A stretch of DNA of 39,166 nt, from NCBI GenBank assembly GCA_964632315.1, contig CAZWEM010000046.1, positions 1-39,166 on the forward strand, read 5' to 3'. Position 1 is the first letter of the stretch, and every line of letters starts with the position of its first letter. The translations under genes were made by a program, and so were the position numbers. Of this stretch, positions 6,191-29,850 are shown in pieces. Source of the DNA: an uncultured archaeon (GTDB taxonomy: Archaea; Asgardarchaeota; Lokiarchaeia; Sigyniarchaeales; SOKP01). The notes under the pieces were generated by a model, which did not search any database, was not told where the DNA came from, and saw only the letters and a program-made list of their open reading frames with translations.

Positions 6191-6523
6191 ATGACGTATG
6201 ATCCCGAAACTAAGAAAAAAATTGAAGAAATAGAAAAAAAATATGATGAAAAGGAAGCTAAAATTCAAGAAGAAATCTCAAGAGAATTTGATGTAGTTCT
6301 CGATGAGATTCATGAAAAATACGAAAAAGATTATCGAGATATGGGAGAAGTTAAGAGCGAACAAAGGAATTTAAAGGAAAGGATCTCTCAATTGAAAGAT
6401 ATTTTAAAAATATTTAAAAAAGAAATTTCAATTTTGACCAAGAATAAAAAGAAACTGTTAAAACAGAAACTAAAAGAATTAGAGAAAGAAAAAGAAGCAG
6501 AACTCGATAAGTTTAATGGATAG
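6191..6523 (+). CDS. Hypothetical Lys/Glu-rich coiled-coil protein
   Basis: 110 aa, ATG start, heptad-like charged helix pattern, coding-like composition. Confidence 0.7.
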   Translation: MTYDPETKKKIEEIEKKYDEKEAKIQEEISREFDVVLDEIHEKYEKDYRDMGEVKSEQRNLKERISQLKDILKIFKKEISILTKNKKKLLKQKLKELEKEKEAELDKFNG

Positions 6524-6639
6524 GACTTAATAACTACACAAAAAATAAAATTATTCTAACTAGATTATCTTAAATATCCTCTTAATCTTCAATCTTATTT
6601 TATTAGAACGTAATAAAGTTAAATCCTCCTTCAATCTTA

Positions 6640-6736
6640 CAAGCTTGAATTTAATAGTGGGTCATCATTCCCTAGAAAGAATTGATAAGCTTAATAATCT
6701 GTTCCAAATTATTAGTTAAAGATTTAAAGGTCATTT
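6640..6736 (+). repeat. Degenerate direct-repeat copy A of the arcE upstream region (copy B at 9278-9383)
   Basis: Manual alignment: 11 mismatches over the first 77 nt, then a ~10 nt indel, then a shared TAAAGATTTAA..GTCATT. Confidence 0.85.
6658..6672. promoter_or_regulatory. TGGG-N8-CCC box inside repeat copy A
   Basis: TGGGTCATCATTCCC. Confidence 0.5.
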
Positions 6737-7370
6737 ATAAGAAAAGAAAAAATTAGTATTGCGAATCTATACAATTAGATATCATTCCTAGTTCCTCAAA
6801 TGCGTAAGGATCTTTTAATAGATGATAAGCAAGTGAAGTTGAAGATTTTGAAGCTTCTTTTTGAAAATTTTTTCTTTTTTTGTTCAAGTCTCTCTCATAA
6901 TAATATAATTTGATCTACAGAATCCTGAAAATCCTTTCTTTTAGATATTATTCCAGATTATTAATCTAAGTAAAAAGTAGAGAAAGTATTAAAAGATGGG
7001 GATTTAAGGAGGCTAATCTTAAAAGAATTTCAACATTTAAATCTTAATTAAAAAAAAAATTTATCTCTGCTAATTTATTATGAATTAGAACAATTTAACG
7101 TTAAATATAAATATCATCATTACTTATCTTACTACAGATGCGAAAAAAAATTTCAGATATGTGAAATTTTTAAGTTTAAGATTTACTTCTTGATTTTTTT
7201 CTTTTATCATCCTTAATTGTTTCGACAATGAAAATAGACAAATACCATATACCTTATTGAGAGTAAATCTTTAAATTTAATGATAATATAAGATTTAATT
7301 TATTCGTGTTTCAATGAAAATTAATAAGACAGTGTATAGTAAATTTAAATAGAATAATAAAAAGAGAAGC

Positions 7371-7574
7371 ATGATAATTATAGAGAAAGATTTAAAAAAA
7401 TTTGTTGATTATAATAAAAAGAATGGACTTTTATATGACAACTTGTATATAAACGACATTAAATTTGTTATCAAAACAGCCTTCCAAGATTCAAGGAAAG
7501 AAGGGTCAATAAACAATATTAGAATTGCCAAATTTAATTTAACGGATACAATATATCTTGCTAATTATGATTAA
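7371..7574 (+). CDS. Small hypothetical ORF, possibly a gene fragment
   Basis: 67 aa with a purine-rich leader. A coding-like stretch (KNNLDKYNSLFNKSRDLDNIYDDTKPHIFNI*) continues in another frame to ~7695. Confidence 0.4.
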   Translation: MIIIEKDLKKFVDYNKKNGLLYDNLYINDIKFVIKTAFQDSRKEGSINNIRIAKFNLTDTIYLANYD

Positions 7575-7713
7575 AGAAGCTTGATTGAATAATTAAATCT
7601 AAAAATAATTTAGATAAGTATAATTCTTTGTTTAATAAAAGTAGGGATCTTGATAATATTTATGATGACACCAAACCACATATTTTTAATATTTAAAAAG
7701 AGGTATAAGATGA

Positions 7714-8616
7714 ATGAAAATACAAACAGAAAATTATTGTAATGTTTTGAGAAAATATCCTTTCTCATTATTTGAAATGGATGGATCATTGGAAATATGG
7801 CAGAAAATATATTCTCCTTACATAGATTCAATCGAAAGTAAAATTAATATCTCAAAAAATAATTCAATTAAGATATTTAGAAATCATAATTTTGCATTTG
7901 ATAATGAACTTCAGCAACGAATTGCTGATTTAATTATAAATGAAGTTGAGGATCAGAATTCTATTTCGAAAAGTTCAGGAAATTATTTTGAAAAACTAGA
8001 TGAAAAAATTAGAATTGAGGATCAATATTCTGAAGAAGTAGAAAAAAAAAACAGTAATCTAAAAATCACATTCGTTTTTACAAATAAGAAAATGCAACCA
8101 TTAAGATTAATTCAGATGCTTAAATTAACTGGTGAAGTAGAGAAGTTTACTCAATTACTGCATAAAAACGAGCTTAAACAACATTCTAAGATAGTCCCGC
8201 AAATTATCTTTATATCCCTATTTGGTTTCGAAGCCTCAGTAAGAGACTATCTAAGAGATAACCTTTATGGAAAATTAAATAGAAATATTTCAATTTTAGT
8301 TGTCCCACCTATCGATAATAAATTATGGAATAACTACTTTATAAAAGATCCAATGGAAGATAATGAAAAGCATAATTCGGGAATTAGTTTCGAAAGGTTT
8401 AATAATTTGAGAAAGAATGGAGCAGTAAATCAATTGCAAGTAAAAAGAATGGAGACTTACTATAAGGATTTAAAAGATACTAAACAGATCATAGAAGATA
8501 ATTTTCAAGAGTTAAATACTTGGGCAGATGTCTTGAGCATTAATGATTCTCCCACACTATTGAATTTAGAAAAATCAAGGAATAAAATTAAGGATGAACT
8601 AAAAATAAAAAATTAA
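7714..8616 (+). CDS. Hypothetical protein, possible divergent restriction-endonuclease-like fold
   Basis: 300 aa open frame in very AT-rich DNA with GAGGT upstream; segments RIADLII and IIFISLFGF. Confidence 0.7.
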   Translation: MKIQTENYCNVLRKYPFSLFEMDGSLEIWQKIYSPYIDSIESKINISKNNSIKIFRNHNFAFDNELQQRIADLIINEVEDQNSISKSSGNYFEKLDEKIRIEDQYSEEVEKKNSNLKITFVFTNKKMQPLRLIQMLKLTGEVEKFTQLLHKNELKQHSKIVPQIIFISLFGFEASVRDYLRDNLYGKLNRNISILVVPPIDNKLWNNYFIKDPMEDNEKHNSGISFERFNNLRKNGAVNQLQVKRMETYYKDLKDTKQIIEDNFQELNTWADVLSINDSPTLLNLEKSRNKIKDELKIKN

Positions 8617-8841: not shown

Positions 8842-9186
8842 TTAGCCTGGTCTTGTAATGGCGTAAAAGTCATAATTGAATTCTTTAACTATTTCGTAAT
8901 GCTGCGAGAATTCGTCGTGTCTTGAAAGCACTTTTTGAGCTTTTGGAGGGACAACAGATTGCTCGTACTCCTCTCCTGCAAATTCTTTTACAGCACTCAA
9001 GTTATCAAATATCATCATGGTGATAAATTCAACTTCATCTTTCAACGAGCGCTTTAAAAGACTCATTTTCCGATACCCCTTTATGTGTCTATTTTTAATG
9101 TATGGAAATATTTCATTTAGAAGTAAATTTTCGTAGGTATCAGCGTTCTCATGCGTGGTCCAGCCATGCCAGATTCTTGCTATCAT
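8842..9186 (-). CDS. Antibiotic biosynthesis monooxygenase-like (dimeric alpha+beta barrel) protein
   Basis: MIARIWHGWT..ADTYE, EVEFIT, AVKEFAGEEYEQSVVPP, HYE. Start placed at the ATG of MIAR. Confidence 0.8.
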   Translation of the reverse strand: MIARIWHGWTTHENADTYENLLLNEIFPYIKNRHIKGYRKMSLLKRSLKDEVEFITMMIFDNLSAVKEFAGEEYEQSVVPPKAQKVLSRHDEFSQHYEIVKEFNYDFYAITRPG

Positions 9187-9277
9187 GCTTAAAACCAATT
9201 CAATAATTAAATTTTTATGAGACTAAATTTAAAATTTATAATTAAAAATATTATATCTCATTTTTCTTTTAATTTAC

Positions 9278-9383
9278 CAAGCTTAAGTTTAATAGTGGGT
9301 TATCATTCCCGTGAGAGAATTGATAATCTTAATAATTAGTCCCAAATTAATAGTGTTGATCAATTAAAGATTTAAGAGTCATT
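9278..9383 (+). repeat. Direct-repeat copy B, the promoter region of the arcE-like gene
   Basis: Aligns to 6640-6736 and ends just before the ATG at 9388. Confidence 0.85.
9296..9310. promoter_or_regulatory. TGGG-N8-CCC putative operator upstream of arcE-AOR
   Basis: TGGGTTATCATTCCC, ~78 nt before the start codon. Confidence 0.6.
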
Positions 9384-9387
9384 ATTT

Positions 9388-10725
9388 ATGAAGAAAAAAG
9401 TAATAATCATAGGGGCCCTTGGATACGATTTCCATTTATTTTTTCAAGTGTTCAAGGATAATGAGGAATATGAGGTTATCGCCTTTACTATAGCAGGAGA
9501 GCAAAATGTCGGTACTACTGATGAAGCTGAGAGAAAGTTTCCAGCAGAACTGGCTGGTAAGTTATATCCTGATGGCATTCCTATGGTATCTGAAGAAAGA
9601 TTAGAGGAAATGATAAAGAAATATGACGTAGATGAGGTCGTGTTTGCCTATAGTGATGTATCTCATGAAGAGGTAATGCATAAAGGCTCTAGAGCCCTTG
9701 CAGCAGGAGCTAATTATCGCTTGATCTCTGGTAGGTTTACTCAGATAAAAGCAAACAAACCCGTTGTTGCCGTATGTGCCGTAAGAACTGGTTGTGGTAA
9801 GAGTCAGGTTTCAAGAGCAGTATATCGTTATTTGAAGGGAAAAGGATATAAGGTAGTGGCAATCCGCGAGCCAATGCCCTATGGAGACTTGGTCCAGCAA
9901 AACGTGATGAGATTTGAGACTTATGACGATTTAGATAAGTATGATTGTACTATAGAAGAACGGGAAGAGTATGAGCCCTACATTCAGCAGGGATTGGTCA
10001 TCTATTCTGGTGTCGACTATGAAAAGATTGTAAGAGAAGCAGAAAAGGAAGCGGATGTCATTATTTTTGACGGTGGAAACAACGAAATTTCGTTCTATGT
10101 TCCTGATCTACTCTTTATTGTAGTGGATCCCTTACGACCTGGCCATGAAATGAAGTATCATCCCGGAGAAGTGAATGCTAGGTACGCAGATGTGTTTGTG
10201 ATCAACAAGATGAATAGCGCGAAAGAAGAAGATGTAAAAATTGTGGAGAAAAACCTTGATGAATTAAATCCAAACGCGATTAGATTATATACTAACTCTA
10301 TTGTAATTGCGGAAGATCCTACAAAGCTAAAAGGAAAGAGGGTTGTTGTGGTCGAGGACGGCCCAACTTTAACTCATGGAGGAATGGCAATTGGAGCCGC
10401 TTATGTTGCAGCTAAAAATGCGGGTGCTAAAATAGTGGATCCCAGAAAATTTCTTGTTGGTTCGATGAAAGAAGTATTTGAGGAATTTCCACAAATTACA
10501 GAAATTGTTCCGGCAATGGGATACACTGATAAACAAATCGAAGATCTAGAAAATACATTAAAAAATGTAAAATGTGACATTATTCTTAACGGAAGCCCTA
10601 TAGATCTTTCAAAGTTAGTAAACGTAAATAAACCTATTATTAAGGTAACTTATGATATTGAAGCATTAGGTACCCCTTCAATCGAGAGCGTACTCGATGA
10701 GTTCGTTTCAAAATTCATGAAATAA
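9388..10725 (+). CDS. arcE: cDPG-synthetase-like P-loop NTPase; probable arginine synthetase (ArcE)
   Basis: VIIIGALGYDFH, FPAELAGKLYPDGIP, P-loop AVRTGCGKS, PMPYGDL, CTIEEREEYEP, DGGNNE, VEDGPTLTHGGM, PAMGY; clustered with OTC and carbamate kinase. Confidence 0.8.
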   Translation: MKKKVIIIGALGYDFHLFFQVFKDNEEYEVIAFTIAGEQNVGTTDEAERKFPAELAGKLYPDGIPMVSEERLEEMIKKYDVDEVVFAYSDVSHEEVMHKGSRALAAGANYRLISGRFTQIKANKPVVAVCAVRTGCGKSQVSRAVYRYLKGKGYKVVAIREPMPYGDLVQQNVMRFETYDDLDKYDCTIEEREEYEPYIQQGLVIYSGVDYEKIVREAEKEADVIIFDGGNNEISFYVPDLLFIVVDPLRPGHEMKYHPGEVNARYADVFVINKMNSAKEEDVKIVEKNLDELNPNAIRLYTNSIVIAEDPTKLKGKRVVVVEDGPTLTHGGMAIGAAYVAAKNAGAKIVDPRKFLVGSMKEVFEEFPQITEIVPAMGYTDKQIEDLENTLKNVKCDIILNGSPIDLSKLVNVNKPIIKVTYDIEALGTPSIESVLDEFVSKFMK

Positions 10726-10798
10726 TAATAAAAGTAAATCTATATTTTTTTAGTTTAAAATTCTTTAATGTGTATTGGTTATTAGTTAGTGATCCTAA

Positions 10799-12985
10799 AT
10801 GATAGTAGAAAAAAAGGAATATGAAATCCGAGAAGTGCAGAAGGGATATAGTAATAGGACACTATACATCGATATTACTTCTAATAAAATTGAAATAAAA
10901 CCTGTTTCTAACGAAATGAAACAAAAATTTATTGGTGGAAAGGGTTTTGATTTATGGCTCATGTGGCATGCACTCCCTAAGGATCGCGTCGTTAAATGGG
11001 ATGATCCCATAAATGAGATCTGCATTTCTTCTGGTCCGTTAGGTGGGAGTATCTTTTATCCTGGCTCTGGAAAGTCTATAGTCACCACTATTTCCCCCTT
11101 AACTGGTATTGTTATTGATAGTAATGTGGGAGGATATTTTGGACCATATCTTAAATTTTCAGGATTTGATGCGCTTGAAATTCAAGGTAAATCAGATAAA
11201 GAAAAAATAATTTACATAGATGGGATAGAGGGTTTTGTTGAAATAGAAGAAATAGGAGATTGGGATAATCTATCAATATATTCACATGAACTTACCCAAT
11301 ATCTTACCGAAAAATACGCTAAAGATGACTCGGAAAAAAGTCAGATATCAGTAGTAAGCACGGGTCCAGCAGCAAGACATACAAATTGGGGGATGTTAAA
11401 TTTCTCTTGGTATGTGAGAGGTCGACAATGGGCTTCGGTCAAACAAGCTGGGAGAGGAGGAATTGGCACTGTTTTTGCAGATAAAAAAATTAGAGCAATT
11501 GTCTGCCGAACTCCAAAAGTGAAGTTAAATTCGAATAACGCCGCGGATTTGGAGACTGCTAAAAAACTTGGACAAACACACAGTCAAGAAATTATAAAGA
11601 ACGATCCCATCCAAAATGAAATGAGAAGAGTAGGAACTGGCCACTTACCAGATATCATGAATGTCACTGATTTGCTTCCAACAGAAAATTTTCGATTTGG
11701 GGCGCATAAAAAAATACGAGGAAAAGATATTCCATATAGCAGGGAGATAATGAGAGATATATATTCTGGGAGAGAAGGAGCAGATGGGTGCTGGATAGGA
11801 TGTACTGTGAGTTGTTCTCATTATTCTGAAAATCATGAAGTACTTACTGGTCCATTCAAGGGACAAAAAGTAATTGTGGATGGCCCAGAGTATGAAACTA
11901 TAGCAGGTTGTGGTTCTAATTGGGGCGTGTGGCATCCTAAATGGGTCTTAGAAGCAAACTTCTACTGTGATACGTATGGGCTTGACACAATATCGGTAGG
12001 AACCGGGATTGCATTCGTCATGGAATGTTTCGAAACGGGAATCTTAAATAAAGAAATTACGGGAGGTTTGGAATTAAATTTTGGTAACGCTTCCGCAGCT
12101 CTTGAACTAATACACCAAATGGCTCGGGGAGAAGGTTTTGGGATGACAGTTGGAAAGGGAATTAAAAAAATGAAAACATTATTCATTGAGAAATATGGAG
12201 CAGATCCTCAATTTCTTCAAGATATTGGGATGGAACATAAGGGATTAGAATTCTCTGAATATATGACAAAGGAATCGCTTGCCCAGCAAGGAGGATATGG
12301 ATTTACAAATAAGGGCCCTCAGCATGACGAAGCTTGGCTGATATTTGAGGATATGGTCCGAAACACGATTCCAAGCTTCGAAGATAAGGCAAATGCCCTT
12401 ACATTCTTCCCTTATTGGCGCACATGGTTTGGATTATGCGGGTTGTGTAAGCTCCCGTGGAATGATATTGTCCCCCCAGATAACAGCGAATACCCAATAA
12501 AAGACCCGGATACTGGAGCTTTGGTGAGAGCTACGATTCCCAAACACGTCGAATGGTATGCAAAGTATTATTCCGCAGTTACAGGTATTGAATCAGCACC
12601 TAATGATTTGATAACTATGTCAGAACGAGTTTATACCTTTCAAAGAATCTTTAACATACGGCAAGGTAAAGGACTTCGTGAAAATGATTCACATTTACCA
12701 TATCGAGCAATGGGACCAGTCACACCGCTTGAATATGAGAGTAGAGCTGAACGATATGACGAGCAATTAATGGAACTTGGAATTAGCATTGAGGGAAAAA
12801 ATACCACTGAAAAAATAAAAGTTTTAAGATCATATAGAGAAAATCAATATGTTAAGCTTCAAGATGCCGTATATAAAAAAAGAGGTTGGACAAAAAGTGG
12901 TTGCCCAACCATTAAATTAGTAAGGGAATTAGGAATTGATTATCCCGATGTAATTGCATATATCAAACCTCATCAAGACATTTAA
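10799..12985 (+). CDS. Aldehyde:ferredoxin oxidoreductase (W/Mo-pterin AOR family)
   Basis: FIGGKG, SPLTG..DSNVGG, QAGRGGIG, CWIGCTVSC, GPEYET, CDTYGLDTIS, GLCGLCKLPW, YKKRGW. Confidence 0.93.
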   Translation: MIVEKKEYEIREVQKGYSNRTLYIDITSNKIEIKPVSNEMKQKFIGGKGFDLWLMWHALPKDRVVKWDDPINEICISSGPLGGSIFYPGSGKSIVTTISPLTGIVIDSNVGGYFGPYLKFSGFDALEIQGKSDKEKIIYIDGIEGFVEIEEIGDWDNLSIYSHELTQYLTEKYAKDDSEKSQISVVSTGPAARHTNWGMLNFSWYVRGRQWASVKQAGRGGIGTVFADKKIRAIVCRTPKVKLNSNNAADLETAKKLGQTHSQEIIKNDPIQNEMRRVGTGHLPDIMNVTDLLPTENFRFGAHKKIRGKDIPYSREIMRDIYSGREGADGCWIGCTVSCSHYSENHEVLTGPFKGQKVIVDGPEYETIAGCGSNWGVWHPKWVLEANFYCDTYGLDTISVGTGIAFVMECFETGILNKEITGGLELNFGNASAALELIHQMARGEGFGMTVGKGIKKMKTLFIEKYGADPQFLQDIGMEHKGLEFSEYMTKESLAQQGGYGFTNKGPQHDEAWLIFEDMVRNTIPSFEDKANALTFFPYWRTWFGLCGLCKLPWNDIVPPDNSEYPIKDPDTGALVRATIPKHVEWYAKYYSAVTGIESAPNDLITMSERVYTFQRIFNIRQGKGLRENDSHLPYRAMGPVTPLEYESRAERYDEQLMELGISIEGKNTTEKIKVLRSYRENQYVKLQDAVYKKRGWTKSGCPTIKLVRELGIDYPDVIAYIKPHQDI

Positions 12986-12987
12986 GT

Positions 12988-13016
12988 CTTATTCTTATCT
13001 TTTTTCCTTGCTTTTA
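12988..13016 (+). terminator. T-rich terminator after AOR
   Basis: CTTTTTTCCTTGCTTTT tract after the stop codon. Confidence 0.45.
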
Positions 13017-13077
13017 CTAATGATCTTGTGTTAAAGATTCTCTCCAATTCCCTATTTCAATGCATTTAATTAAAACA

Positions 13078-13092
13078 TGGGAATCTATTCCC
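13078..13092. promoter_or_regulatory. TGGG-N8-CCC putative operator upstream of the PDH-like/OTC/CK genes
   Basis: TGGGAATCTATTCCC (palindrome GGGAAT-CT-ATTCCC); TATA-like TTATATA at ~13140. Confidence 0.65.
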
Positions 13093-13180
13093 CTACTAAC
13101 ATCAAAATTAAAGCTTTTTTAAAATAAATTATAATTAAGTTATATACTAATAATTGCAATTATTTTAATCGAGATCATTT

Positions 13181-15262
13181 ATGGATTTCATAACAACTCA
13201 TCCCATTTTAGATATTCCTGATCGGAAACGAGTTCAGTTCACCTTTAATGGAGATGCTTACGAAGCATTTGAGGGAATGGTCATATCTTCAGCTTTATTT
13301 TTGAACGGAATCAAAATTTTTGGACATCATCCCAAAGATCAAAGCCCTCAAGGGATATTTTGCGCGAATGGTCAATGTTCGCAATGTAATGTTATTGTGA
13401 ATGGATTTCCTACGAAGGGGTGTATGACACCACTCAAGAACGGCATGGTCATTGAGAGTTGTAAAGGCATACCAGAATTACCACCTGTTGATGACCTTGT
13501 AGAAGTTGGCGATGTTAAGTCAATTGAGACAGAAGTTTTAATAGTTGGAGGTGGTCCTGCTGGGCTTTCAGCAGCGAGAGTATTTGGAATGGAGGGGATA
13601 GATGTCATCTTAATCGATGATAAGTTAAAATTGGGCGGAAAATTAATACTTCAGACCCATAAATTCTTTGGTTCACAAGAAGACGTTTATGCCGGAAAAA
13701 GGGGGATCGATATTGCAAAAATTTTAGCGCAGGAAGTACAATCCTATGAATCCGTTAAAGTATTTCTAAATAACTCGGCATTGGCAATATTTAGCGATAA
13801 GAAAGTAGGAATCCTAAAGAATGCAGAAGAATATCTTTTAATAAAGCCTAAGTATCTTTTGATTGCTACTGGAGCACGAGAGAAAATGTTAGTTTTCTCC
13901 GGAAATACTTTACCCGGAATTTATGGGGCAGGAGCATTTCAAACGTTAGTTAATCGAGATTTAGTGAAAGCAGCTGAAAAAGTTTTCATTGTAGGAGGAG
14001 GTAATGTAGGGTTGATCGCAGGGTATCATGCTATTCAAGCAGGAATCGGAGTTGTGGGGCTTATTGAAGCATTACCCGTGTGTGGAGGATATAAAGTGCA
14101 CGAAGATAAACTCAGACGTCTAGGAGTCCCAATTTATACAAACCACACGATAATTTCCGCTAATGGAAAAGAAAGGGTTGAATCGATCACAATAGGGAAA
14201 ATTGACGAATTTGGTGAAATTGTTGAAAATACTGAAAAAACATTTCCGTGTGATACGATTTTAATCGCTGTTGGATTAAATCCCGTGGATGAATTTTATG
14301 ACAAAGCGATCCAATTTGGAATGAACGTACGAATAGCAGGAGATGCACAAGAGATTGCAGAAGCTTCCGCTGCAATTTTTACTGGAAGAATTGAAGCTTT
14401 AAAAATGTTGGAAGATATGGGAAAGGTCATCGAAGAGGATCTTTCAAGCTTAGAGGATTTTGCTGATTTAATGAAAAAGAAGCCCCCAATGCCATCTAAA
14501 TCAAATTTTCCAGAAAAAGAAGAAGGAATTTTTCCCTTATTCCATTGCAACCAAGAAATTCCCTGTAATCCTTGTACTTCTGTTTGTCCCCAAGAACAAA
14601 TCAAAACTGAAGAGGATCTCATTACTAATTTGCCTTATTTCAAGGATGAAAAAGAGTGTATCGGATGTGGAAAGTGCGTTGCAGTATGCCCTGGGCTTGC
14701 AGTCACGCTGGTTGATTATAGGAAAGATAAAGATTATCCTTCAGTCACCTTTCCTTTAGAGCTCTCAGAATCAAGATTACAAAAGGGAATCTCTATTTTT
14801 GTTGTTAGTAATGATTCCGTGCTTGGAGAATTTGAAATTTCTCGCGTTCGTGTCTTGAAAGAATTTCCAAAGACCCAATTAATAACAATTAAGCTACCTA
14901 AAACTATAGTCAAAAAAGCTGTTGGTTTAAAATTACATCAGAATGTTTATGATCAAGAAATTGATACTTATCAAAAAGATTTCACTCCAAACGATACTAT
15001 TGTCTGTCGTTGTGAACGAGTCACAGTGGGAGAAATTCGCAAATGGATTCGTTATGGAGTAAGAGATTTCAATGAGTTAAAAGCATTAACCAAAGTTGGA
15101 ATGGGATCTTGTGGAGGAAAAACTTGTACTCCATTAATAAATAGAATTTTTCGAGAAGAAGGAATTGATGATTTTAAGATTGTTCAAGGAACTAAAAGAC
15201 CATTATTCATGGAAGTTCCCATGGGATACTTTGCAAGCGTAAGTAGAAAAGGAAGTGAATGA
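13181..15262 (+). CDS. Proline dehydrogenase/sarcosine oxidase alpha-like fusion: 2Fe-2S + FAD/nucleotide-binding + 2x[4Fe-4S] + BFD-like 2Fe-2S
   Basis: GIFCANGQCSQC, IVGGGPAGL, ATGARE, VGGGNVGL, CNQEIPCNPCTSVCP, CIGCGKCVAVCP, VCRCERVT, GMGSCGGKTC, RP. Confidence 0.88.
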   Translation: MDFITTHPILDIPDRKRVQFTFNGDAYEAFEGMVISSALFLNGIKIFGHHPKDQSPQGIFCANGQCSQCNVIVNGFPTKGCMTPLKNGMVIESCKGIPELPPVDDLVEVGDVKSIETEVLIVGGGPAGLSAARVFGMEGIDVILIDDKLKLGGKLILQTHKFFGSQEDVYAGKRGIDIAKILAQEVQSYESVKVFLNNSALAIFSDKKVGILKNAEEYLLIKPKYLLIATGAREKMLVFSGNTLPGIYGAGAFQTLVNRDLVKAAEKVFIVGGGNVGLIAGYHAIQAGIGVVGLIEALPVCGGYKVHEDKLRRLGVPIYTNHTIISANGKERVESITIGKIDEFGEIVENTEKTFPCDTILIAVGLNPVDEFYDKAIQFGMNVRIAGDAQEIAEASAAIFTGRIEALKMLEDMGKVIEEDLSSLEDFADLMKKKPPMPSKSNFPEKEEGIFPLFHCNQEIPCNPCTSVCPQEQIKTEEDLITNLPYFKDEKECIGCGKCVAVCPGLAVTLVDYRKDKDYPSVTFPLELSESRLQKGISIFVVSNDSVLGEFEISRVRVLKEFPKTQLITIKLPKTIVKKAVGLKLHQNVYDQEIDTYQKDFTPNDTIVCRCERVTVGEIRKWIRYGVRDFNELKALTKVGMGSCGGKTCTPLINRIFREEGIDDFKIVQGTKRPLFMEVPMGYFASVSRKGSE

Positions 15263-16433
15263 TCGATTGACAGAATACGATGCTATCATAATTGGAGCCG
15301 GAAGCATTGGCATCCCTTCAGCATTAGCCATCGCAAGAGAGGGGTTAAAAGTGTTAGTCCTCGATAAATTACCATCTCCTGCTCAAGCAGATAATAAACA
15401 TGCCATTGGAGGTGTCAGAGCAACTCATACTGAAAGAAGTAAAATCTGGCTATGCCAGAGATCAATCGAAATATTTTCAACATGGGAGGAAGAATATGGT
15501 GATGATATATGGTGGGAACAAGGTGGATATTGCTTTGTCTCCTATACTGGTGAACATGAACGAATGCTGAAACAAAACGTAAAACTGCAGAAATCTTATG
15601 GATTAAATATCGATTACGTAGATAAAGAAAAGATAAAGGTACTCATTCCAGGAATAAATGAAAATGGCCTTCTAGGAGGGACTTATAGCCCCGAAGATGG
15701 AAATTGTTCTCCCCTACTCTCTCTTCATGCTTTTTATAGGCAAGCACGAGATTATGGTGCTGAATACCGTTTTAGTGAAGAAGTTAAAAAAATAATTGTT
15801 GATAATGGCAAAATAAGTGGAATTAAGACCACAGAAGGAGAATACCACAGCTCAATTGTTATTAATGCTGCGGGGGGGAATGCAAAAGAAATCGGAAAGA
15901 TGGTTAATGTTGATTTACAAGTTAACCCCGAATCGCATGAAGCAGGAATAACTGAGCCTGTGAAAAAGTTTTTCAATCCAATGGTGGTGGATATACGTCC
16001 CGCTCAAGATCCTAAATTTGGAAATTCTAAAAATTATTATTTCTATCAAAATAAAGAAGGGAAGATCATTTTTTGTGTTTCTCCCGATCCTTGTATTAAA
16101 GGAATGGATCGGAGAGAAACCAGTTCTTTCTTGCCACAAATAGCAAAACGAATGATCAATCTGCTTCCAAGGTTAAAAAATATAAAGGTGAGGAGGACTT
16201 GGAGAGGATTATACCCGATGACTCCAGATGGTAACCCTATTCTATGTAAATCAAAAGAATTGGAGGGTTTATTTCTAGCAGTGGGAATGTGTGGTCAAGG
16301 ATTCATGCTTGGTCCGGCAGTGGGAGAATTAATGGGTCGTCTTGTAACTGAAAAATTAACAATTCGAGATAAAGAAATTTTAGAAGACCTCTCTTATTAT
16401 AGAGACTTTAATCGAGAAGAAGTATTGAAGTAA
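15255..16433 (+). CDS. FAD-dependent DAO-family oxidoreductase (proline dehydrogenase/sarcosine oxidase beta-like)
   Basis: IIGAGSIG, VINAAG, RTWRGLYPMTPDGNPIL, GMCGQGFMLGP; overlaps the alpha-subunit stop (translational coupling). Confidence 0.9.
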   Translation: MNDRLTEYDAIIIGAGSIGIPSALAIAREGLKVLVLDKLPSPAQADNKHAIGGVRATHTERSKIWLCQRSIEIFSTWEEEYGDDIWWEQGGYCFVSYTGEHERMLKQNVKLQKSYGLNIDYVDKEKIKVLIPGINENGLLGGTYSPEDGNCSPLLSLHAFYRQARDYGAEYRFSEEVKKIIVDNGKISGIKTTEGEYHSSIVINAAGGNAKEIGKMVNVDLQVNPESHEAGITEPVKKFFNPMVVDIRPAQDPKFGNSKNYYFYQNKEGKIIFCVSPDPCIKGMDRRETSSFLPQIAKRMINLLPRLKNIKVRRTWRGLYPMTPDGNPILCKSKELEGLFLAVGMCGQGFMLGPAVGELMGRLVTEKLTIRDKEILEDLSYYRDFNREEVLK

Positions 16434-16489
16434 AATTTAAGGGATCGTTCATTATTTACTAACTAAATATTCAAAAAAATTGATTAATA

Positions 16490-17422
16490 ATGGTTAGACA
16501 TTTACTTAAGGTATCAGATCTTTCAAGATCAGAATGTGAACTCATAATAAACAAAGCAATTGATATTAAAAAAAATCCAAATAAATATTATAATTCCTTA
16601 GAGCACGAAACTCTTCTTATGCTTTTTGAAAAACCTTCTTTACGAACAAGAATTTCCTTTGAAACTGGAATGAATCAACTAGGAGGGCATGCAATATTTT
16701 ATTCAATTAAGGATTCACCTTTAGGAAAAAAAGAAAATATATCTGATACTTCCATAGTTGCTTCGAGGTTTGTAAATATCATTGCAGCTCGTGTCTTCAA
16801 AAGGCAAGACATTTGGGATCTCGCTAAATATGCTAGTGTCCCTGTGATCAACATGTTAGATGATTTCGCACATCCCTGTCAAATATTAGGAGATTTTCTT
16901 ACAATAAAAGAGAAGAAGGGTAAACTTGATGGATTTAAACTTGCTTACTACGGAGATGCTCATAATAATGTAACATACGACTTGATGAGAATGGCGGCTA
17001 TATTTGAGTTAGAAATGGATGTTGCTTGTCCAATGGGTTCGGAATACATGCCTGAAGATATTGTACTTGAAGAAGTAAAAAATCTTTCTAACAATTCTGG
17101 AGCAAAAGTAAGAATCATTCATAATGCTGAAGAAGCTGCACACTCTGCTAATGTTATATATACAGATAGTTGGATGTCATACGGTATTCCAAAAGATAAA
17201 GAAGAAGAACGGGTAAAGGCTTTTAATCCTTATCAAGTTACTAATGAAATATTGGATTTAGCAAATTCAGATGTAATATTCATGAATTGTTTACCCGCTA
17301 TGCGTGGATATGAACAAACAGCTGAAGTTATTGATGGACCACATTCAGTAGTTTTCGATCAAGCCGAAAATCGGTTACACATTCAAAAGGCAATTATGCT
17401 CTTTCTCAGAGGGAAATTCTAA
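16490..17422 (+). CDS. argF: Ornithine carbamoyltransferase
   Basis: FEKPSLRTR, HPCQ, YTDSWMS, FMNCLPA, FDQAENRLH. Confidence 0.96.
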   Translation: MVRHLLKVSDLSRSECELIINKAIDIKKNPNKYYNSLEHETLLMLFEKPSLRTRISFETGMNQLGGHAIFYSIKDSPLGKKENISDTSIVASRFVNIIAARVFKRQDIWDLAKYASVPVINMLDDFAHPCQILGDFLTIKEKKGKLDGFKLAYYGDAHNNVTYDLMRMAAIFELEMDVACPMGSEYMPEDIVLEEVKNLSNNSGAKVRIIHNAEEAAHSANVIYTDSWMSYGIPKDKEEERVKAFNPYQVTNEILDLANSDVIFMNCLPAMRGYEQTAEVIDGPHSVVFDQAENRLHIQKAIMLFLRGKF

Positions 17423-17508
17423 TAGCAATAACGCAAAATTTATAATTTTACCTATAATATTATTATTTTTCAAATTAACAATTTTAGAGTTGATATATAA
17501 TAGAAACA

Positions 17509-18414
17509 TTGATCATTGCGCTTGGCGGAAATGCCCTAATAAAGTTTGGAGAAGAAGGAACCACCGAAGAACAGTTTAAGAATTTAAGAGTTCCAATGTC
17601 ACAAATAGCTGAGCTTTCAAGAGAATATAATATTGTAATCACTCATGGAAACGGCCCCCAGGTTGGAATGCTTCTCATGCAACAAGAAGCAACTCAAGAG
17701 GTCTCAAAGAGACCACTACAAGTGTTAGTAGCAGAGACACAAGGACAAATTGGGTACATGATCGAATCGACGTTAGATGAAGAATTGATGAAGATCGGTC
17801 AAGATGAGCAAAAACTTTTTCTTACTGTTCTCACGTATGTTAAGGTTGACCCAGAAGATCCGGCTTTTCATAATCCTACAAAACCAATTGGACCTGCTTA
17901 TCCCCAACCAAAACCGGGCTATGTAAAGACTAACAAGGGATGGCGTCGAGTAGTCCCCTCTCCTAAACCTAAGAAAATCTACCAATGGAGAGAGATCAAG
18001 AGATTAATGGAATTAGGGAGTTGGATTGTCATTGCTTGCGGAGGAGGGGGAATTCCAGTAATCAAAGAGGGAAAAAGGTTATCTGGAGTTGAAGCAGTGA
18101 TTGATAAAGATTTAGCAAGTTCCAAGTTAGGAGAGCAAATCGGAGCCGATATTTTATTAATTGCTACCGATGTAGAAAAAGTTGCCCTTAATTATGGCAC
18201 ATCTGAACAAAAATTTCTTGATAACATTTCAATTAAAGAGGCATTAAAATACTTGGAAGAGAACCAATTTCCAGCTGGAAGTATGGGTCCAAAGGTTCAA
18301 GCTGTTGTAAATTTTCTCCAAACTGGTGGTAAAAGAGCGATTATTACTTCTATTGATAAGATCAAAGAAGCCTTAAAAGGAGAAGCAGGAACCCACTTCT
18401 ATATTGAAAAGTAG
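17509..18414 (+). CDS. arcC: Carbamate kinase (start uncertain: TTG 17509 or ATA 17500)
   Basis: IALGGNAL, THGNGPQVG, PTKPIGP, WRRVVPSP, GGGGIPV, EAVIDKD, GSMGPK. Confidence 0.96.
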   Translation: MIIALGGNALIKFGEEGTTEEQFKNLRVPMSQIAELSREYNIVITHGNGPQVGMLLMQQEATQEVSKRPLQVLVAETQGQIGYMIESTLDEELMKIGQDEQKLFLTVLTYVKVDPEDPAFHNPTKPIGPAYPQPKPGYVKTNKGWRRVVPSPKPKKIYQWREIKRLMELGSWIVIACGGGGIPVIKEGKRLSGVEAVIDKDLASSKLGEQIGADILLIATDVEKVALNYGTSEQKFLDNISIKEALKYLEENQFPAGSMGPKVQAVVNFLQTGGKRAIITSIDKIKEALKGEAGTHFYIEK

Positions 18415-18477
18415 TCTATTTTAAAGAAATTAAGCCATAAAAAATGATTATTTTATGCCTAAAAGATAATCATATAA

Positions 18478-19737
18478 TTATTTAATTAGGACGTTTTCTA
18501 TTATACCTAATGCCCAGTCTATTTGTTCCTTCGTTATCACAAGAGGAGGGGCAAATCTAATAATCGTGGAATGAGTATCTTTAGCTAAAATACCATTATC
18601 CTTTAATTCTTCCACGATAGGTCTAGCATTTACTTTAAATTCTAGAGCAATCAATAAACCTTTCCCTCTAACTTCTTTTACAGGAATTTTTGGACCTTTA
18701 GCAACGATTTTTTTTAAGCCTTCCAAAAAATAGGTCCCATTTTCTTTTGCTCTCTGCGCTAGATGATCCTCAATGTGAACTTCAAGTGATTTAGTTCCCA
18801 CTGCGGCTGCAATTGGATTGCCTCCAAATGTTGAACCGTGTGTCCCAGGTTTAATAACATCTGGTCCAATAATATCTTTATTAGCTACTACAGCTGAAAC
18901 TGGATACACTCCTCCACCTAATGCTTTTCCTAATAACAACATATCCGGTTTAACATTTTCGTGATCGCAGGCAAATAATTCACCCGTCCTTCCAAACCCC
19001 GTTTGAATTTCATCAGCTATCATTAAGACATTATATTTTGAGCATATTTCTCTAACTTTTTTGATGTATCCTTCAGGAGGAATATTTATCCCAGCTTCTC
19101 CTTGTATCGGTTCGAAGATGAATCCAGCTACTCTTTCAGGTCCTATTTCAAGGATAATATTCTCTAAAATCTCTGCCATTCCATAGGGAATTATCGTGAA
19201 ACCTGGAGTGTACGGTCCAAAGTTACCATAATACCGTACAGCAGATATATCAGTACTTATTCCTACAATAGTGATGGATCTTCCATGGAAATTATTTCGA
19301 CATACTATAATTTGAGCGTCGTTCTTAGGAATTTTCTTCTTAATATATCCCCACGCTCGAGCAACTTTCAATCCAGTTTCAACAGCTTCAGTACCAGTGT
19401 TCATGGGGAGAGCCATTATCCCTGAATTATTTGGATCATTTAAGTGAGGTCCAACAACTTCACACAATTTCTTTATAAATGGCCCCATTACATCATTATG
19501 AAACGCTCTAGAGGTGAGAGTTACTTTATCTGCTTGTTCTTTTAAGGCTTTAATAATATCTGGATGTCTATGTCCCGTATTTTGACTTGAATAGGCTGAT
19601 AAACAATCTAGATATTTATTTCCTTCCGGATCCCATACCCATACTCCTTCAGCTTTACTAATAACGACGGGAATGGGGTGGTAATTGTGAGCACAATATT
19701 CAAGGTCCATATCAATATAATCTTTTGTTCCTGGCAA
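18478..19737 (-). CDS. rocD: Ornithine--oxo-acid aminotransferase (class III PLP)
   Basis: AHNYHP, YLDCLSAYS, LTSRAF, PMNTGTEAVET, EPIQGEAG, DEIQTGFGRTG, LGKALGGG, HGSTFGGNP. Confidence 0.93.
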   Translation of the reverse strand: MPGTKDYIDMDLEYCAHNYHPIPVVISKAEGVWVWDPEGNKYLDCLSAYSSQNTGHRHPDIIKALKEQADKVTLTSRAFHNDVMGPFIKKLCEVVGPHLNDPNNSGIMALPMNTGTEAVETGLKVARAWGYIKKKIPKNDAQIIVCRNNFHGRSITIVGISTDISAVRYYGNFGPYTPGFTIIPYGMAEILENIILEIGPERVAGFIFEPIQGEAGINIPPEGYIKKVREICSKYNVLMIADEIQTGFGRTGELFACDHENVKPDMLLLGKALGGGVYPVSAVVANKDIIGPDVIKPGTHGSTFGGNPIAAAVGTKSLEVHIEDHLAQRAKENGTYFLEGLKKIVAKGPKIPVKEVRGKGLLIALEFKVNARPIVEELKDNGILAKDTHSTIIRFAPPLVITKEQIDWALGIIENVLIK

Positions 19738-19945
19738 ATTATATCACATTTTTTGATTAAAACACTAATTTTCTAATAGTGTAAATGGTAGATTCCGTTA
19801 AAAGTTTAAGCGTTTATGAGGGAAATATTTGGGAACTCATCATGAATCGGTAAGAGCTCTTAAAAGATGGAATATGGATCTACTTGGTATATTTATAAAT
19901 CATAGAACCCAAGTATCACATATTAAGAGTTATCAATTAAACACT

Positions 19946-21268
19946 ATGCCTATTAAAATATCAAACAAGCTGATCTTCAACATTGTCATCGCAAACCTTT
20001 TTTGGAGTTTTATACCGATAGTTGTAAAAGGATTATTTGCTGATATTTCTATTCTTACTGTTATTTTTCTCAGATTTCTTACTGGAGGGATTGTATTATT
20101 TTTGATTGCCATTCTTTTAATCATCATCAACAATCGCCTTAATATTGACAAAAAAATATCACTTAAACAACTATTTGTAAATTTAAGGCATAAAAATCGA
20201 AGATTTTATGATGTGAGAACTTATCAATATTATTTTCTCATTGGATTTTTCGGTATTATCCTACACATTATTTTTTATTTTTTAAGTCTTAAAACGACAT
20301 CTATTCCTTTCACAATGATAGGATCGCTTCTAACAATAATTTTTATAGCTTTTTACGAAAAGGGGGTCAATTTTGAAAGGTTTGATGTGTTTAGAATATT
20401 ATTTATTACAATAATATCGTTTGCAATCATTATTATCATGTTTGTTTCATTTATGGGAGGTCAAATATCTGGAAACCCTATCCAAGTGCAAGGCTTTATC
20501 TATATCCTCTTATATTCAATAACAGGTTCATTTTTATATATCAGCATTGATAGAGATTCATTTTCAAAGAATGAATTGAGAGACATTAACATAAACAAAT
20601 ATTACAAAATTCCTCGTTCTTTACTTAAAATGGCAATCTCATTTGTCTCTGGAGTCTTGTTTCTCCTTCCAGTTTTATTGATCATTAATATCTTGCCTGT
20701 AGAGATGGATATTACTCAAGAAACACGTGCTTTCTTTTCTGATTTATCATCAATTTTTTCGATACTACAAAGATGGGAAATTATCTATCTTATAGTATTT
20801 GCTACGATTATACCGTATTTATTAATCTTCTTGGCAAACGTTAGTTGGAAATCTAAGAGTTTAACTTATAGCCAATGGAGTAGCATCATTGGGATCATTG
20901 ATCCAATGAATACATTAATTTTTTCCGTGATTTTGGTTGGTACTTATTTCCCCTCTCAGGATTTGTTAGTTGTAATAATATTCCTAGGAATTGCTATCAT
21001 TTTACGATATGCCCATGAAGTAAGGAACATTGTTCAAGCGGTTGTATTCTTGAAAATAAAGAAAGCAAGTTTGAAGACGCTCCCTATAAGAATTTTAAAG
21101 TTTTATGGCGTAAGAAAAATAGATACCTTAATTGGACGATATGATCTAATGCTAACGGTAAAAGTAAATTCCTTTAAAGATTTTCACTATTTGATTAATA
21201 AAAATTTAAAACCTATGAACGAAATTGAAATTATAGAACCACAATTTATCAATAATATTGAGATTTAA
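19946..21268 (+). CDS. DMT/EamA-type transporter with C-terminal Lrp/AsnC ligand-binding (RAM) domain
   Basis: About 10 TM helices with EamA hallmarks (LFWS, IFLRF, YFLSLK, IDP); C-terminal QAVVFLKIK..GVRKIDTLIGRYDLMLTVKV. Start placed at ATG 19946 (MPIK) rather than TTG 19829. Confidence 0.8.
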   Translation: MPIKISNKLIFNIVIANLFWSFIPIVVKGLFADISILTVIFLRFLTGGIVLFLIAILLIIINNRLNIDKKISLKQLFVNLRHKNRRFYDVRTYQYYFLIGFFGIILHIIFYFLSLKTTSIPFTMIGSLLTIIFIAFYEKGVNFERFDVFRILFITIISFAIIIIMFVSFMGGQISGNPIQVQGFIYILLYSITGSFLYISIDRDSFSKNELRDININKYYKIPRSLLKMAISFVSGVLFLLPVLLIINILPVEMDITQETRAFFSDLSSIFSILQRWEIIYLIVFATIIPYLLIFLANVSWKSKSLTYSQWSSIIGIIDPMNTLIFSVILVGTYFPSQDLLVVIIFLGIAIILRYAHEVRNIVQAVVFLKIKKASLKTLPIRILKFYGVRKIDTLIGRYDLMLTVKVNSFKDFHYLINKNLKPMNEIEIIEPQFINNIEI

Positions 21269-21532: not shown

Positions 21533-22081
21533 TTACCTGTTTATTTTTGAGAGAACACCTGTTAAGAGGTTGGAAAAGGCTTTTTCTACGTTATCACCCG
21601 ATTTGGCGCTTGTTTCGATGAAATCTCTAGCCTTAATTTTTTCAGCTACCGTTTTACCTTCTTTAGTTGTTATCCCTCTTGAGCCTTCTAAATCACTTTT
21701 ATTTCCAATTAATAAGAATGATGCATTTTCTTTACCGTATGTAATAAGATCCGGATACCATTTAGACTCCACACTTTCCAAGGTGGAAGGTCTTGTTAAA
21801 TCGTAAACAAAAAGCGCTCCAGAACATCCTTGAAAAAACATCCTGCGAGAAAGCTCATAACGTTCTTGACCTGCTATGTCCCAAATAATTAATTTCACTT
21901 TTAGGTTCTTTTCTTTTACTTCAATATCCTTAATCAGAATGTTAACCCCTAATGAAGCGTTGTATTGCTCATTAAACTTATGATGAATGTATTGATCAAT
22001 GAGCGAAGTTTTTCCTGTAGCTGGGTCTCCTAAAAGGGCTATTTTATACATTAAATCGGTTTTCTCGGGTTCAGACATCAC
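21533..22081 (-). CDS. Rab-like small GTPase (Ras superfamily, Asgard type)
   Basis: G1 GDPATGKTS, G3 WDIAGQE, G4 GNKSD, G5 ETSAK; RabF-like KLIIW; no C-terminal Cys motif. Confidence 0.95.
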   Translation of the reverse strand: MMSEPEKTDLMYKIALLGDPATGKTSLIDQYIHHKFNEQYNASLGVNILIKDIEVKEKNLKVKLIIWDIAGQERYELSRRMFFQGCSGALFVYDLTRPSTLESVESKWYPDLITYGKENASFLLIGNKSDLEGSRGITTKEGKTVAEKIKARDFIETSAKSGDNVEKAFSNLLTGVLSKINR

Positions 22082-22160: not shown

Positions 22161-23753
22161 TCAATATCCAATAGCTTGTCCATCTTTTCGAGGATCTGAA
22201 GCAGCTAAGTAACCTTCATCTAATTTATAGATTATTTGACCTCCTCCAAAATTGAAATATAGATCTTCCTTAATAGAATGACCCTTTCTAGTTAATTTAT
22301 TGATGCTATTCTTATTAAATTCACTTTCAACTTTAGCGTTCAACCCATTTATCACCCTCCAGCGAGGTGCATCTAACGCAGTTTGGGGATTTTGACCATA
22401 TTCAAAAATACGAATCATCATTTGAGCATGTCCTTGAGGCTGCATCTCTCCTCCCATCACGCCAAAGCTCATAATAGGCTTTCCTTTTTGAGTCACAAAT
22501 CCAGGAATTATGGTGTGAAATGGTCGCTTATTGGGTCCAACTTGATTAGGGTGACCTTCAATCAAGTTAAATCCATTTCCCCTATTTTGAAGGCTAATTC
22601 CAGTTCCGGGAATAACTATTCCAGATCCAAAGCCCATATAATTGGATTGAATGTATGAAACCATCATTCCGTCCTCATCAGCAGCAGTTAAATATACTGT
22701 ATCACCTTCTTTTGGGATCCCGTGTTTAAAGATTTCAGCGCGAGTTAAGTCTATTTCTAAAGCCCTGTGTTTCAAATAATCATCATCTAGTAAGTGCACA
22801 GGATCAAATTCCAAGGTTGAGGGATCGGAGATATATCGATATGCATCAGAAAATGCGAGTTTCATTGCTTCTAGTTGAATGTGAATCGCTTCAGGAGAAT
22901 CTGGGTCGAACTCACTAATATCAAAATTCTTCAAGATCCCCAACATGATTAATGCAGTTATACCTTGTCCATTTGGAGGAATCTCATGTAAAGTTACTCC
23001 TTTATAATCCATAGAAAGAGATTTTTCCCAACTGACTTTGTGATTTTCAAGATCTTGGAGTGTCATAACTCCCCCTGTATTTTCAGAATGAGATACAATC
23101 TTTTTTGCTAATTCTCCACTATAAAAGGCTTCACCTTTTGTTTGAGCAATCTTTCTTAGGGTTTCTGCTTGAGGAAGACACTTAAATAACTGACCAGGCG
23201 AGGGTGGTTTTCCATTGATCATGAATGTTTCATAAAATTCGGGATATAATCGTTTTTTATACATTTTAGCGAGATAACCCCATATCTCGGCTGTTACTGG
23301 AGAAACAATGAATCCTTTCTCAGCATACCTTATTGCTGGCTTAAATAATTCTTCAAATGATAATTGTCCATACTTATTTGATAATTCCACCCATGCGGAT
23401 ACTGCGCCTGGAATGGTAGTAGCATCCCAACCAAACATTGGCATTGATTTTCTGCGTGAAAAATACTCTGGAGTCCATGCAGCGGGAGATCTTCCAGAAG
23501 CATTCAAACCTTTAAGTGATTTTCCGTCCCAAATTAAAGCGAACGCATCACTACCAATTCCATTATTTACCGGTTCAACCACGGTTAGGGTGATAGCGGT
23601 CGCAATCGCAGCATCTACAGCATTACCTCCATTTAATAACATTTTTATACCAGCTTGACACGCAAGAGGTTGCGAAGTTGCGATAACATTTTCAGCTAGA
23701 ATAGGCATTCTACGAGAAGGATATTTAAAGTTCCATCCAAACTTTCCGAACAT
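22161..23753 (-). CDS. ggt: Gamma-glutamyltransferase family protein (cytoplasmic)
   Basis: ATSQPLA, GGNAVDAAIA, GLNASGRSP, catalytic GD/TVYL, RPFHTIIP, GVMGGEMQPQGH, SDPRKDG; no signal peptide. Confidence 0.94.
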   Translation of the reverse strand: MFGKFGWNFKYPSRRMPILAENVIATSQPLACQAGIKMLLNGGNAVDAAIATAITLTVVEPVNNGIGSDAFALIWDGKSLKGLNASGRSPAAWTPEYFSRRKSMPMFGWDATTIPGAVSAWVELSNKYGQLSFEELFKPAIRYAEKGFIVSPVTAEIWGYLAKMYKKRLYPEFYETFMINGKPPSPGQLFKCLPQAETLRKIAQTKGEAFYSGELAKKIVSHSENTGGVMTLQDLENHKVSWEKSLSMDYKGVTLHEIPPNGQGITALIMLGILKNFDISEFDPDSPEAIHIQLEAMKLAFSDAYRYISDPSTLEFDPVHLLDDDYLKHRALEIDLTRAEIFKHGIPKEGDTVYLTAADEDGMMVSYIQSNYMGFGSGIVIPGTGISLQNRGNGFNLIEGHPNQVGPNKRPFHTIIPGFVTQKGKPIMSFGVMGGEMQPQGHAQMMIRIFEYGQNPQTALDAPRWRVINGLNAKVESEFNKNSINKLTRKGHSIKEDLYFNFGGGQIIYKLDEGYLAASDPRKDGQAIGY

Positions 23754-29848: not shown

Positions 29849-29850
29849 TT

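Follow-up and report, generated by a model that had tools for sequence, protein, structure and literature searches.

The window analysed here, a stretch of 39,166 nucleotides from an uncultured archaeon (contig CAZWEM010000046.1 of assembly GCA_964632315.1), carries a cluster of seven genes in which a protein resembling the arginine synthetase ArcE is encoded together with a tungsten-type aldehyde oxidoreductase (AOR), a two-subunit flavoenzyme similar to L-proline dehydrogenase (PDH), and the enzymes ornithine carbamoyltransferase (OTC), carbamate kinase (CK) and ornithine aminotransferase (OAT). The proteins of the window were taken from a listing of its open reading frames (ORFs) and scanned against Pfam and NCBIfam, using the curated NCBIfam cut-offs for equivalog assignments. 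The identities, coordinates and strands that the original prediction had given for all seven genes were borne out by the ORF listing and the family scans, and are as follows:

9388..10725, plus strand: ArcE-like P-loop protein, 445 amino acids (aa), without a Pfam or NCBIfam match and with full-length matches to ArcE-family representatives.
10799..12985, plus strand: AOR/WOR-family tungsten-type aldehyde oxidoreductase, 728 aa, with AFOR_N and AFOR_C domains; candidate glutamate-5-semialdehyde oxidoreductase.
13181..15262, plus strand: fused Fe-S flavoprotein resembling PDH alpha and SoxA, 693 aa, in which Pfam recognizes Fer2_4 [2Fe-2S], a Pyr_redox_2 FAD/NAD fold, two [4Fe-4S] clusters and a BFD [2Fe-2S] domain.
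15255..16433, plus strand: DAO-family FAD dehydrogenase resembling L-proline dehydrogenase beta, 392 aa (DAO, 199 bits; 1Y56_B, 192 bits).
16490..17422, plus strand: OTC, 310 aa (TIGR00658, 355 bits; cut-off, 281).
17509..18414, plus strand: CK, 301 aa (TIGR00746, 372 bits; cut-off, 358).
18478..19737, minus strand: ornithine--oxo-acid aminotransferase (OAT), 419 aa, convergent on the operon (TIGR01885, 517 bits; cut-off, 378).

OTC, CK and OAT each score above the curated equivalog cut-off of their family. The co-oriented genes of the cluster are separated by 56-195 bases, while the start of PDH beta overlaps the end of PDH alpha by 8 bases. Searches of the genome (4.45 Mb, 99.5% complete) with tblastn indicated that the enzymes of the arginine branch are encoded nowhere else: the gene at 16490-17422 is the sole OTC (the other match is only 28% identical and resembles aspartate carbamoyltransferase), CK is present as a single copy with no paralog, and the ArcE-like gene is the only arcE. 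Assignment of the OTC gene to putrescine carbamoyltransferase (PTC), and with it to the agmatine pathway, was ruled out by a score of 273 bits on the PTC model, well below its cut-off of 500.

The seven-gene arrangement is not random, as its order recurs in at least 15 other genomes. Within a sample of 201 Asgard genomes, which underlies all the ortholog counts given below, 13 loci retain the series arcE-AOR-PDH alpha-PDH beta-OTC-CK with a convergent OAT; they come from four genera of the window's own family (f1) and from a single genus of f2, its sister family. The arcE-AOR-PDH alpha-PDH beta portion is also retained by four more loci (L001, L003, L005 and L137), which are rearranged or break off early. 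The AOR gene has a fixed position, in which arcE precedes it, the PDH genes and then OTC-CK follow it, and OAT faces it; PDH beta always adjoins PDH alpha in the sister genomes; and OAT lies convergent beside CK in all 13 full-set loci, either directly or past one to three small ORFs. Variants of the arrangement also occur. Locus L138 (G094:C177) has a contiguous arcE-OTC-CK-OAT array without AOR and PDH genes, in which arcE stands directly beside OTC and OAT is co-oriented after CK, and L136 (G195:C42) has AOR-PDH-OTC-CK-OAT with no arcE found. Genes for TPR, PIN or LRR proteins, ThiC, a methyltransferase or a flavodoxin are occasionally inserted in the sister clusters, and genomes of genus g1 have either the whole gene set or none of it. 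Taken singly, the components are distributed much more widely: matches to the ArcE family were found in 164 of the 201 genomes, to the AOR subfamily of the cluster in 96, to OAT in 66, to PDH beta in 60 (46 at 48% identity or more) and to PDH alpha in 56, the last comprising 45 full-length or contig-truncated sequences at 54% identity or more and 11 relatives of ~495 aa at 42-46%. The gene set is conserved together in the window's own family and order (f1 and f2) and not in the other Asgard families, where the genes are dispersed or the set is incomplete, and where a canonical ArcE is usually found with no OTC or CK nearby.

The ArcE-like protein gives full-length matches to ArcE-family representatives with E values of 1e-100 to 1e-147 and contains a Walker A motif (RTGCGKS), a Walker B-like motif (DGGNNE) and an NK motif. 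When its AlphaFold2 model (pLDDT 92.6) was compared with solved structures using Foldseek, the best folds were those of cyclic 2,3-diphosphoglycerate (cDPG) synthetase (8ORK/8ORU, E 1e-17, 16% identity), followed by LpxK (4EHY, E 1e-8), which is the template to which the AlphaFold model of the Thermococcus kodakarensis enzyme TK2200 was likened by its authors (PMC11032458). At the sequence level, the resemblance to the solved cDPG synthetase 9SXB is limited to an E value of 3e-4 across 120 residues. This weak match, together with the 16% identity and a differing genomic context, ruled out that the protein is a true cDPG synthetase. Close relatives carry the source names 'predicted GTPase' or 'cDPG synthase', and the latter, NCBI's label for the Asgard proteins, over-annotates them. 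Arginine synthetase itself (ArcE, TK2200) was reported in 2024, with homologues in Lokiarchaeota, a previous annotation as 'putative GTPase' and a weak similarity to cDPG synthetase, and its gene adjoins arcB or arcC in some genomes (PMC11032458). The protein of the window has the P-loop core, the LpxK-like fold and the merely weak likeness to cDPG synthetase expected of the family, and its gene shows both the association with arcB (OTC) and arcC (CK) and the complementarity with arcA. It thus appears to fit the published traits of the ArcE family, the comparison with TK2200 being made through the published description.

The lack of an arginine deiminase (ADI) in the window had also been noted, and it extends to the entire genome, in which arcA (PF02274) gave no match. 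Since OTC needs a source of citrulline, and the genome contains neither another ArcE nor an ADI, the ArcE-like protein is the candidate enzyme that would connect arginine to citrulline; we infer this activity from the genomic context. Among 80 listed loci with a canonical ArcE, which represent many phyla of bacteria and archaea, 14 had CK and 8 had OTC within 6 kb, and none had an AOR gene. A scan for loci of the family listed at least 80 with names, none of those listed belonging to the Thermococcales. In a tree of 104 sequences, midpoint-rooted and built without cDPG synthetases or TK2200, the ArcE-like proteins of these clusters form a separate clade, hereafter type A, with an SH-aLRT support of 100%; it sits at the end of a long stem branch and is nested among 95 ArcE-family sequences rather than basal to them.

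The second gene of the cluster encodes a clear member of the AOR family, with 159 and 309 bits for AFOR_N and AFOR_C, respectively. Against sequences from the Protein Data Bank (PDB), phmmer gave 166 bits for the AOR of Pyrococcus furiosus (1AOR) and 155 bits for its formaldehyde ferredoxin oxidoreductase (FOR, 1B25), with the top-scoring segment spanning residues 16-526 of the 728. Cys331, Cys335 and Cys339, the GRGG motif, Y365-E366, Y488 and H509 can be aligned to both 1AOR and 1B25 and are invariant in 21 orthologs. The protein accordingly has the [4Fe-4S] cysteines and the equivalents of the second-shell residues described for aldehyde-oxidising AORs (Glu313/His448/Tyr427; PMC12096430), and shows no metal-ligand Cys signature of the YdhV/BCR type; it also has an H-x-EAW motif in common with FOR, an enzyme thought to act on a C5 semialdehyde in P. 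furiosus (PMC12096430). Other members of the family, such as WOR4 and YdhV, are still without a known reaction (PMC12096430). The subfamily has so far been found in Asgard archaea. The apparent in-frame stops in AOR matches proved to be the natural stop codons of proteins two residues shorter, through which the aligner had read; in the sister loci checked (for example L130, L132 and L136) the ORFs are intact at 726-727 aa.

A gene of 187-189 aa lies between arcE and the AOR gene in four sister loci (L005:4783-5346, L131:4936-5499, L132:6860-7423 and L133:15292-15861). It is identified as a flavodoxin by Pfam in L005 and L133, and by size and position only in L131 and L132, and is a candidate electron acceptor there; the window has no such gene. 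The AOR ortholog of family f7 is found near a 928-aa Pyr_redox_2/Fer4_20 flavoprotein resembling GltD and DPD (L101:15289-18078 and L106:5550-8336), a possible redox partner in that family.

The best PDB relative of the DAO-family subunit is the beta subunit of the Pyrococcus horikoshii L-proline dehydrogenase (1Y56_B, 192 bits), well ahead of the beta subunit of heterotetrameric sarcosine oxidase (81 bits), so that a PDH beta is its nearest characterised neighbour. The alpha subunit matches SoxA (2GAG_A, 87 bits) and PH1363 (1Y56_A, 72 bits, residues 15-273 only), and the likeness to these proteins is confined to its first 270-400 residues. Full-length PDH alpha orthologs occur only in families f1, f2, f5, f18, f22 and f27.

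Taken together, these data lead us to a reading in which we have slightly more confidence than doubt, namely that the cluster is a lineage-specific catabolic operon of a Loki-type Asgard archaeon, in which the arginine synthetase pathway is coupled to the conversion of ornithine and proline into glutamate. The ArcE-like protein would convert arginine, ADP and inorganic phosphate into citrulline, ATP and ammonia, after which phosphorolysis of citrulline by OTC would yield ornithine and carbamoyl phosphate, and CK would use the latter to produce a second ATP; OAT would then transaminate ornithine to glutamate-5-semialdehyde/pyrroline-5-carboxylate (P5C). Family assignments stand behind the OTC, CK and OAT steps. 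Proline would enter at the same P5C through the PDH alpha/beta enzyme, as its nearest solved relative suggests, and the AOR, judging from gene order, would oxidise the semialdehyde to glutamate and pass low-potential electrons to ferredoxin or flavodoxin. In doing so it would replace the NAD-dependent P5C dehydrogenase (P5CDH), and no aldehyde dehydrogenase (ALDH) of the P5CDH type was found above the family cut-off in the genome. Oxidation of glutamate semialdehyde by the AOR is a plausible proposal drawn from gene order, and we consider the recruitment of the enzyme for this purpose in the lineage plausible, the chances for and against being about even.

The closest known counterpart is the pathway of T. 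kodakarensis (ArcE TK2200, OTC TK0871 and CK TK2158; PMC11032458, PMC13260591), which likewise combines a P-loop ArcE-family protein of LpxK (4EHY)-like fold and weak cDPG synthetase similarity with OTC and CK, lacks ADI and ArgG/ArgH, and has an expected yield of two ATP per arginine. The two systems differ in that the genes form a single operon here, whereas the TK numbers lie far apart, in the divergent ArcE subclade (compared by description), and in the incorporation of OAT, AOR and the PDH-like enzyme into the cluster. The AOR shares with P. furiosus FOR (1B25/1B4N) and AOR (1AOR) the AFOR_N/AFOR_C architecture, the [4Fe-4S] cysteines and the second-shell Glu, His and Tyr, as well as the FOR-like H-x-EAW; however, the phmmer scores are modest (155-166 bits), the protein is longer (728 aa against 605-619 aa) and it belongs to a separate subfamily. 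Like the dye-linked PDH1 of P. horikoshii (1Y56; alpha PH1363, beta PH1364), the flavoenzyme has a DAO-type beta subunit and an adjacent, translationally coupled alpha subunit with FAD/NAD folds, but the 693-aa alpha subunit additionally contains an N-terminal [2Fe-2S] domain, an insert with two [4Fe-4S] clusters and a BFD domain, as if the extra subunits of the alpha-beta-gamma-delta type had been fused to it, and its gene has that of an AOR as neighbour. The RocD/RocA and PutA routes of bacteria share the intermediates and the overall conversion proposed here, yet in this archaeon an NAD-dependent P5C dehydrogenase would give way to a ferredoxin-linked tungsten-type enzyme, with no membrane or quinone link evident. 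Finally, the cDPG synthetase of Methanothermus fervidus (8ORK/8ORU, 9SXB) provides the best structural match to the ArcE-like protein and has the same two-domain P-loop architecture, from which the protein of the window is set apart by the low identity, the short sequence match and the genomic context described above. We hypothesize that the cluster is a variant of the arginine synthetase pathway and not a new kind of system, its weak links being the activity of the type A ArcE and the substrate of the AOR.

Several observations weigh against this catabolic reading. When type A proteins were compared with 36 canonical ArcE-family sequences, 8 of them from other Asgard families, concerted changes emerged at four near-invariant positions, namely R13 to Y or M (Arg in 100% of the canonical sequences), H161 to E (92%), W227 to F (92%) and D233 to E (100%), along with an insertion of 9-10 residues at 37-47 in the N-terminal domain. 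The protein of the window itself carries R13Y, H161E, W227F and D233E, and the family-invariant Arg of GRDFH, His of RHPMPYG, and Trp and Asp of WDGGNND are not kept in type A. Because the elements of cDPG synthetase that correspond to position 233 (past the Walker B loop), position 13 and the insertion border its substrate site (PMC10690619), the specificity of type A may differ from that of canonical ArcE, and the enzyme might act on another guanidino or ureido compound, or show a changed nucleotide or regulatory behaviour, instead of converting arginine to citrulline. The long stem branch, together with the strong conservation among type A proteins (80-95% identity), would suit such a change of function. 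We nonetheless hold it to be unlikely, as type A is nested within ArcE, D233E is a conservative substitution, and the gene keeps company with a bona fide OTC (not PTC), CK and OAT, immediately beside OTC in L138, in a genome with no other ArcE and no ADI to supply OTC with citrulline. The direction of flux is a separate difficulty. No ArgG, ArgH, ArgJ, ArgC/LysY, ProA or ProC was found in the genome at the family cut-offs, so that the organism may be either an auxotroph with a catabolic operon or the user of an unconventional biosynthetic route. In the latter case, the cluster would be mainly anabolic or run both ways, with the AOR reducing glutamate at the expense of reduced ferredoxin, OAT forming ornithine, OTC and the ArcE-like protein producing arginine at the cost of ATP, carbamoyl phosphate coming from carbamoyl phosphate synthetase (CPS) or CK, and PDH alpha/beta reducing P5C to proline, altogether an acetyl-free route to arginine and proline that bypasses ProA and ArgC. 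The presence of a CPS large subunit gene is compatible with this scheme, as is the fact that the cluster contains the sole OTC and sole ArcE of the genome. AORs are known to reduce acids. ArcE is reversible, with a biosynthetic role proposed in organisms without ArgG/ArgH (PMC11032458). On the other side, CK and OAT in the operon and the lysine-fermentation genes that flank it favour catabolism, T. kodakarensis uses the pathway catabolically although it also lacks ArgG/ArgH (PMC11032458), and the product of an OCD-family gene of the genome could give proline straight from ornithine. Moreover, it is costly to reduce a free carboxylate near -580 mV, and Asgard relatives are described as amino-acid fermenters. 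An anabolic operon is accordingly improbable in our view.

The remaining objections concern the AOR and the flavoenzyme, whose proposed substrates rest on homology in the range of ~25-40% and on gene order. The linkage of AOR, PDH and ArcE is lineage-specific: in the closed genomes of family f5, and in f22, arcE, AOR, PDH and OAT are hundreds of kb apart or on separate contigs. Moreover, 41 of the 96 AOR-positive genomes have neither OAT nor PDH. The clearest case is family f7, in which 34 of 43 genomes contain a single-copy AOR ortholog (55-71% identity) while OAT and PDH were found in 0/43 each, with no PDH beta-like gene even at E 1e-40; AOR without OAT or PDH is also seen in the f1 genera g3, g6 and g8, and conversely family f14 has OAT in 6 of 7 genomes and AOR in 0/7. 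The neighbours of the AOR gene vary by family (MoeA, a ThiS/MoaD-like protein, DUF362-Fer4 or the 928-aa flavoprotein), and no conserved neighbour of AOR or of canonical ArcE was common to the other Asgard families. Orthologs so widespread without OAT and PDH, in such differing surroundings, indicate that the subfamily predates the cluster and has a role outside it; it is older and wider than the cluster, and so was probably recruited into it. The AOR could therefore be a general enzyme, or one for an unrelated aldehyde, that came to lie in the operon by lineage, and the substrate of the PDH-like enzyme may be a different secondary amine, of the sarcosine, opine or D-amino-acid kind, given that its alpha/beta architecture is common to sarcosine oxidases and also found in opine oxidases and HCN synthase. 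The sole generic ALDH of the genome, whose score against a lactaldehyde dehydrogenase model is 236 bits (cut-off, 650), could oxidise the semialdehyde instead. We regard such an incidental association as rather unlikely, a modest share of the probability notwithstanding: the AOR gene is held between arcE and OTC across at least four genera with gaps of 73-195 bases, only this subfamily occurs in the cluster even though AOR-family matches, ~25% identical to the cluster protein, are present on 11 further contigs of the genome, and no dedicated P5CDH was found. The catabolic operon described above remains the reading we prefer. A bolder version, to which we assign a quite low probability, would treat AOR and PDH alpha/beta as one ATP-independent, reversible module between proline or ornithine and glutamate, an analogue of PutA for strict anaerobes, in which the high-potential electrons of proline (~-120 mV) and the very low-potential ones of the semialdehyde (~-580 mV) would confurcate through the Fe-S centres of the alpha subunit to NAD(P)+ or to ferredoxin/flavodoxin; run backwards with OAT, OTC and the ArcE-like protein, it would constitute an unprecedented acetyl-free arginine and proline route in a genome without ArgC/G/H/J and ProA/C.

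The surroundings of the cluster include two further features:

9236..9399, plus strand: arcE upstream region with direct repeats D1/D2, the other copy lying at 6598-6751.
19829..21268, plus strand: EamA/DMT-like membrane protein, 479 aa (EamA, 36 bits); possible substrate or product transporter.

The two copies of the arcE upstream region (9236-9399 and 6598-6751) are ~2.6 kb apart and 73-75% identical, and are separated by an AT-rich block with orphan ORFs (GC 0.23 in the 6001-8000 bin). Divergent from arcE lies an ORF of 118 aa without a Pfam match (8842-9198, minus strand), which is kept in L003, L130 and L137 at 70-77% identity and may encode a regulator. Homologues of the EamA/DMT-like protein (52-68% identity) are located downstream of OAT in six sister loci (L124, L125, L126, L131, L135 and L136). 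Beyond it, on the minus strand, are a Ras-family small GTPase typical of Asgard genomes (21533-22081, 182 aa, Ras 155 bits) and a run of genes (22161-31976) that contains a gamma-glutamyltranspeptidase (22161-23753) and the lysine-fermentation genes KamE/KamD (24164-26539) and KamA (30738-31976); KamDE also follow the cluster in L130, L131 and L136. With lysine-fermentation genes at its flank, the cluster would be part of an amino-acid catabolism island, in keeping with the catabolic reading. The assignment of the DNA to an Asgard archaeon, already given as probable in the original prediction, agrees with the names of the homologues (Promethearchaeota, Lokiarchaeota and related) and with the Ras/Arf GTPases nearby.

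Two observations were made on relatives outside the window. The nearest non-Asgard relative of type A, P0122 (L121:2084-3454 and L122:1993-3363), is its sister in the tree and shares Y13, E161, F227 and E233; on two Logan contigs its gene adjoins a tetraspanin gene, suggesting a eukaryotic host, and this relationship could reflect either kinship between Asgard archaea and eukaryotes or gene transfer. In addition, an Amidohydro_3 protein of ~540 aa is encoded after PDH beta in two sister clusters (L005:11097-12023 and L136:7357-8979), and a related amidohydrolase adjoins the haloarchaeal ArcE relative P0125 (L120:6489-7916).

ArcE homologues in Lokiarchaeota and the proximity of arcE to arcB and arcC are already published (PMC11032458), whereas our literature search found no paper that describes this cluster in Asgard archaea or connects proline dehydrogenase or the catabolism of ornithine with an AOR. 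The type A subclade offers a natural test of the residues that determine the specificity of the recently described arginine synthetase. Should the AOR indeed oxidise glutamate semialdehyde, the tungsten AOR family would acquire a physiological role new to it, and a confurcating module with PDH alpha/beta, if it exists, would allow proline to be oxidised in the absence of a respiratory chain. If the proposed pathway is correct, amino-acid-fermenting Asgard archaea would gain two ATP and reduced ferredoxin per arginine, and the ferredoxin could be turned into H2 or formate for syntrophic partners, which would bear on the syntrophy models of eukaryogenesis.

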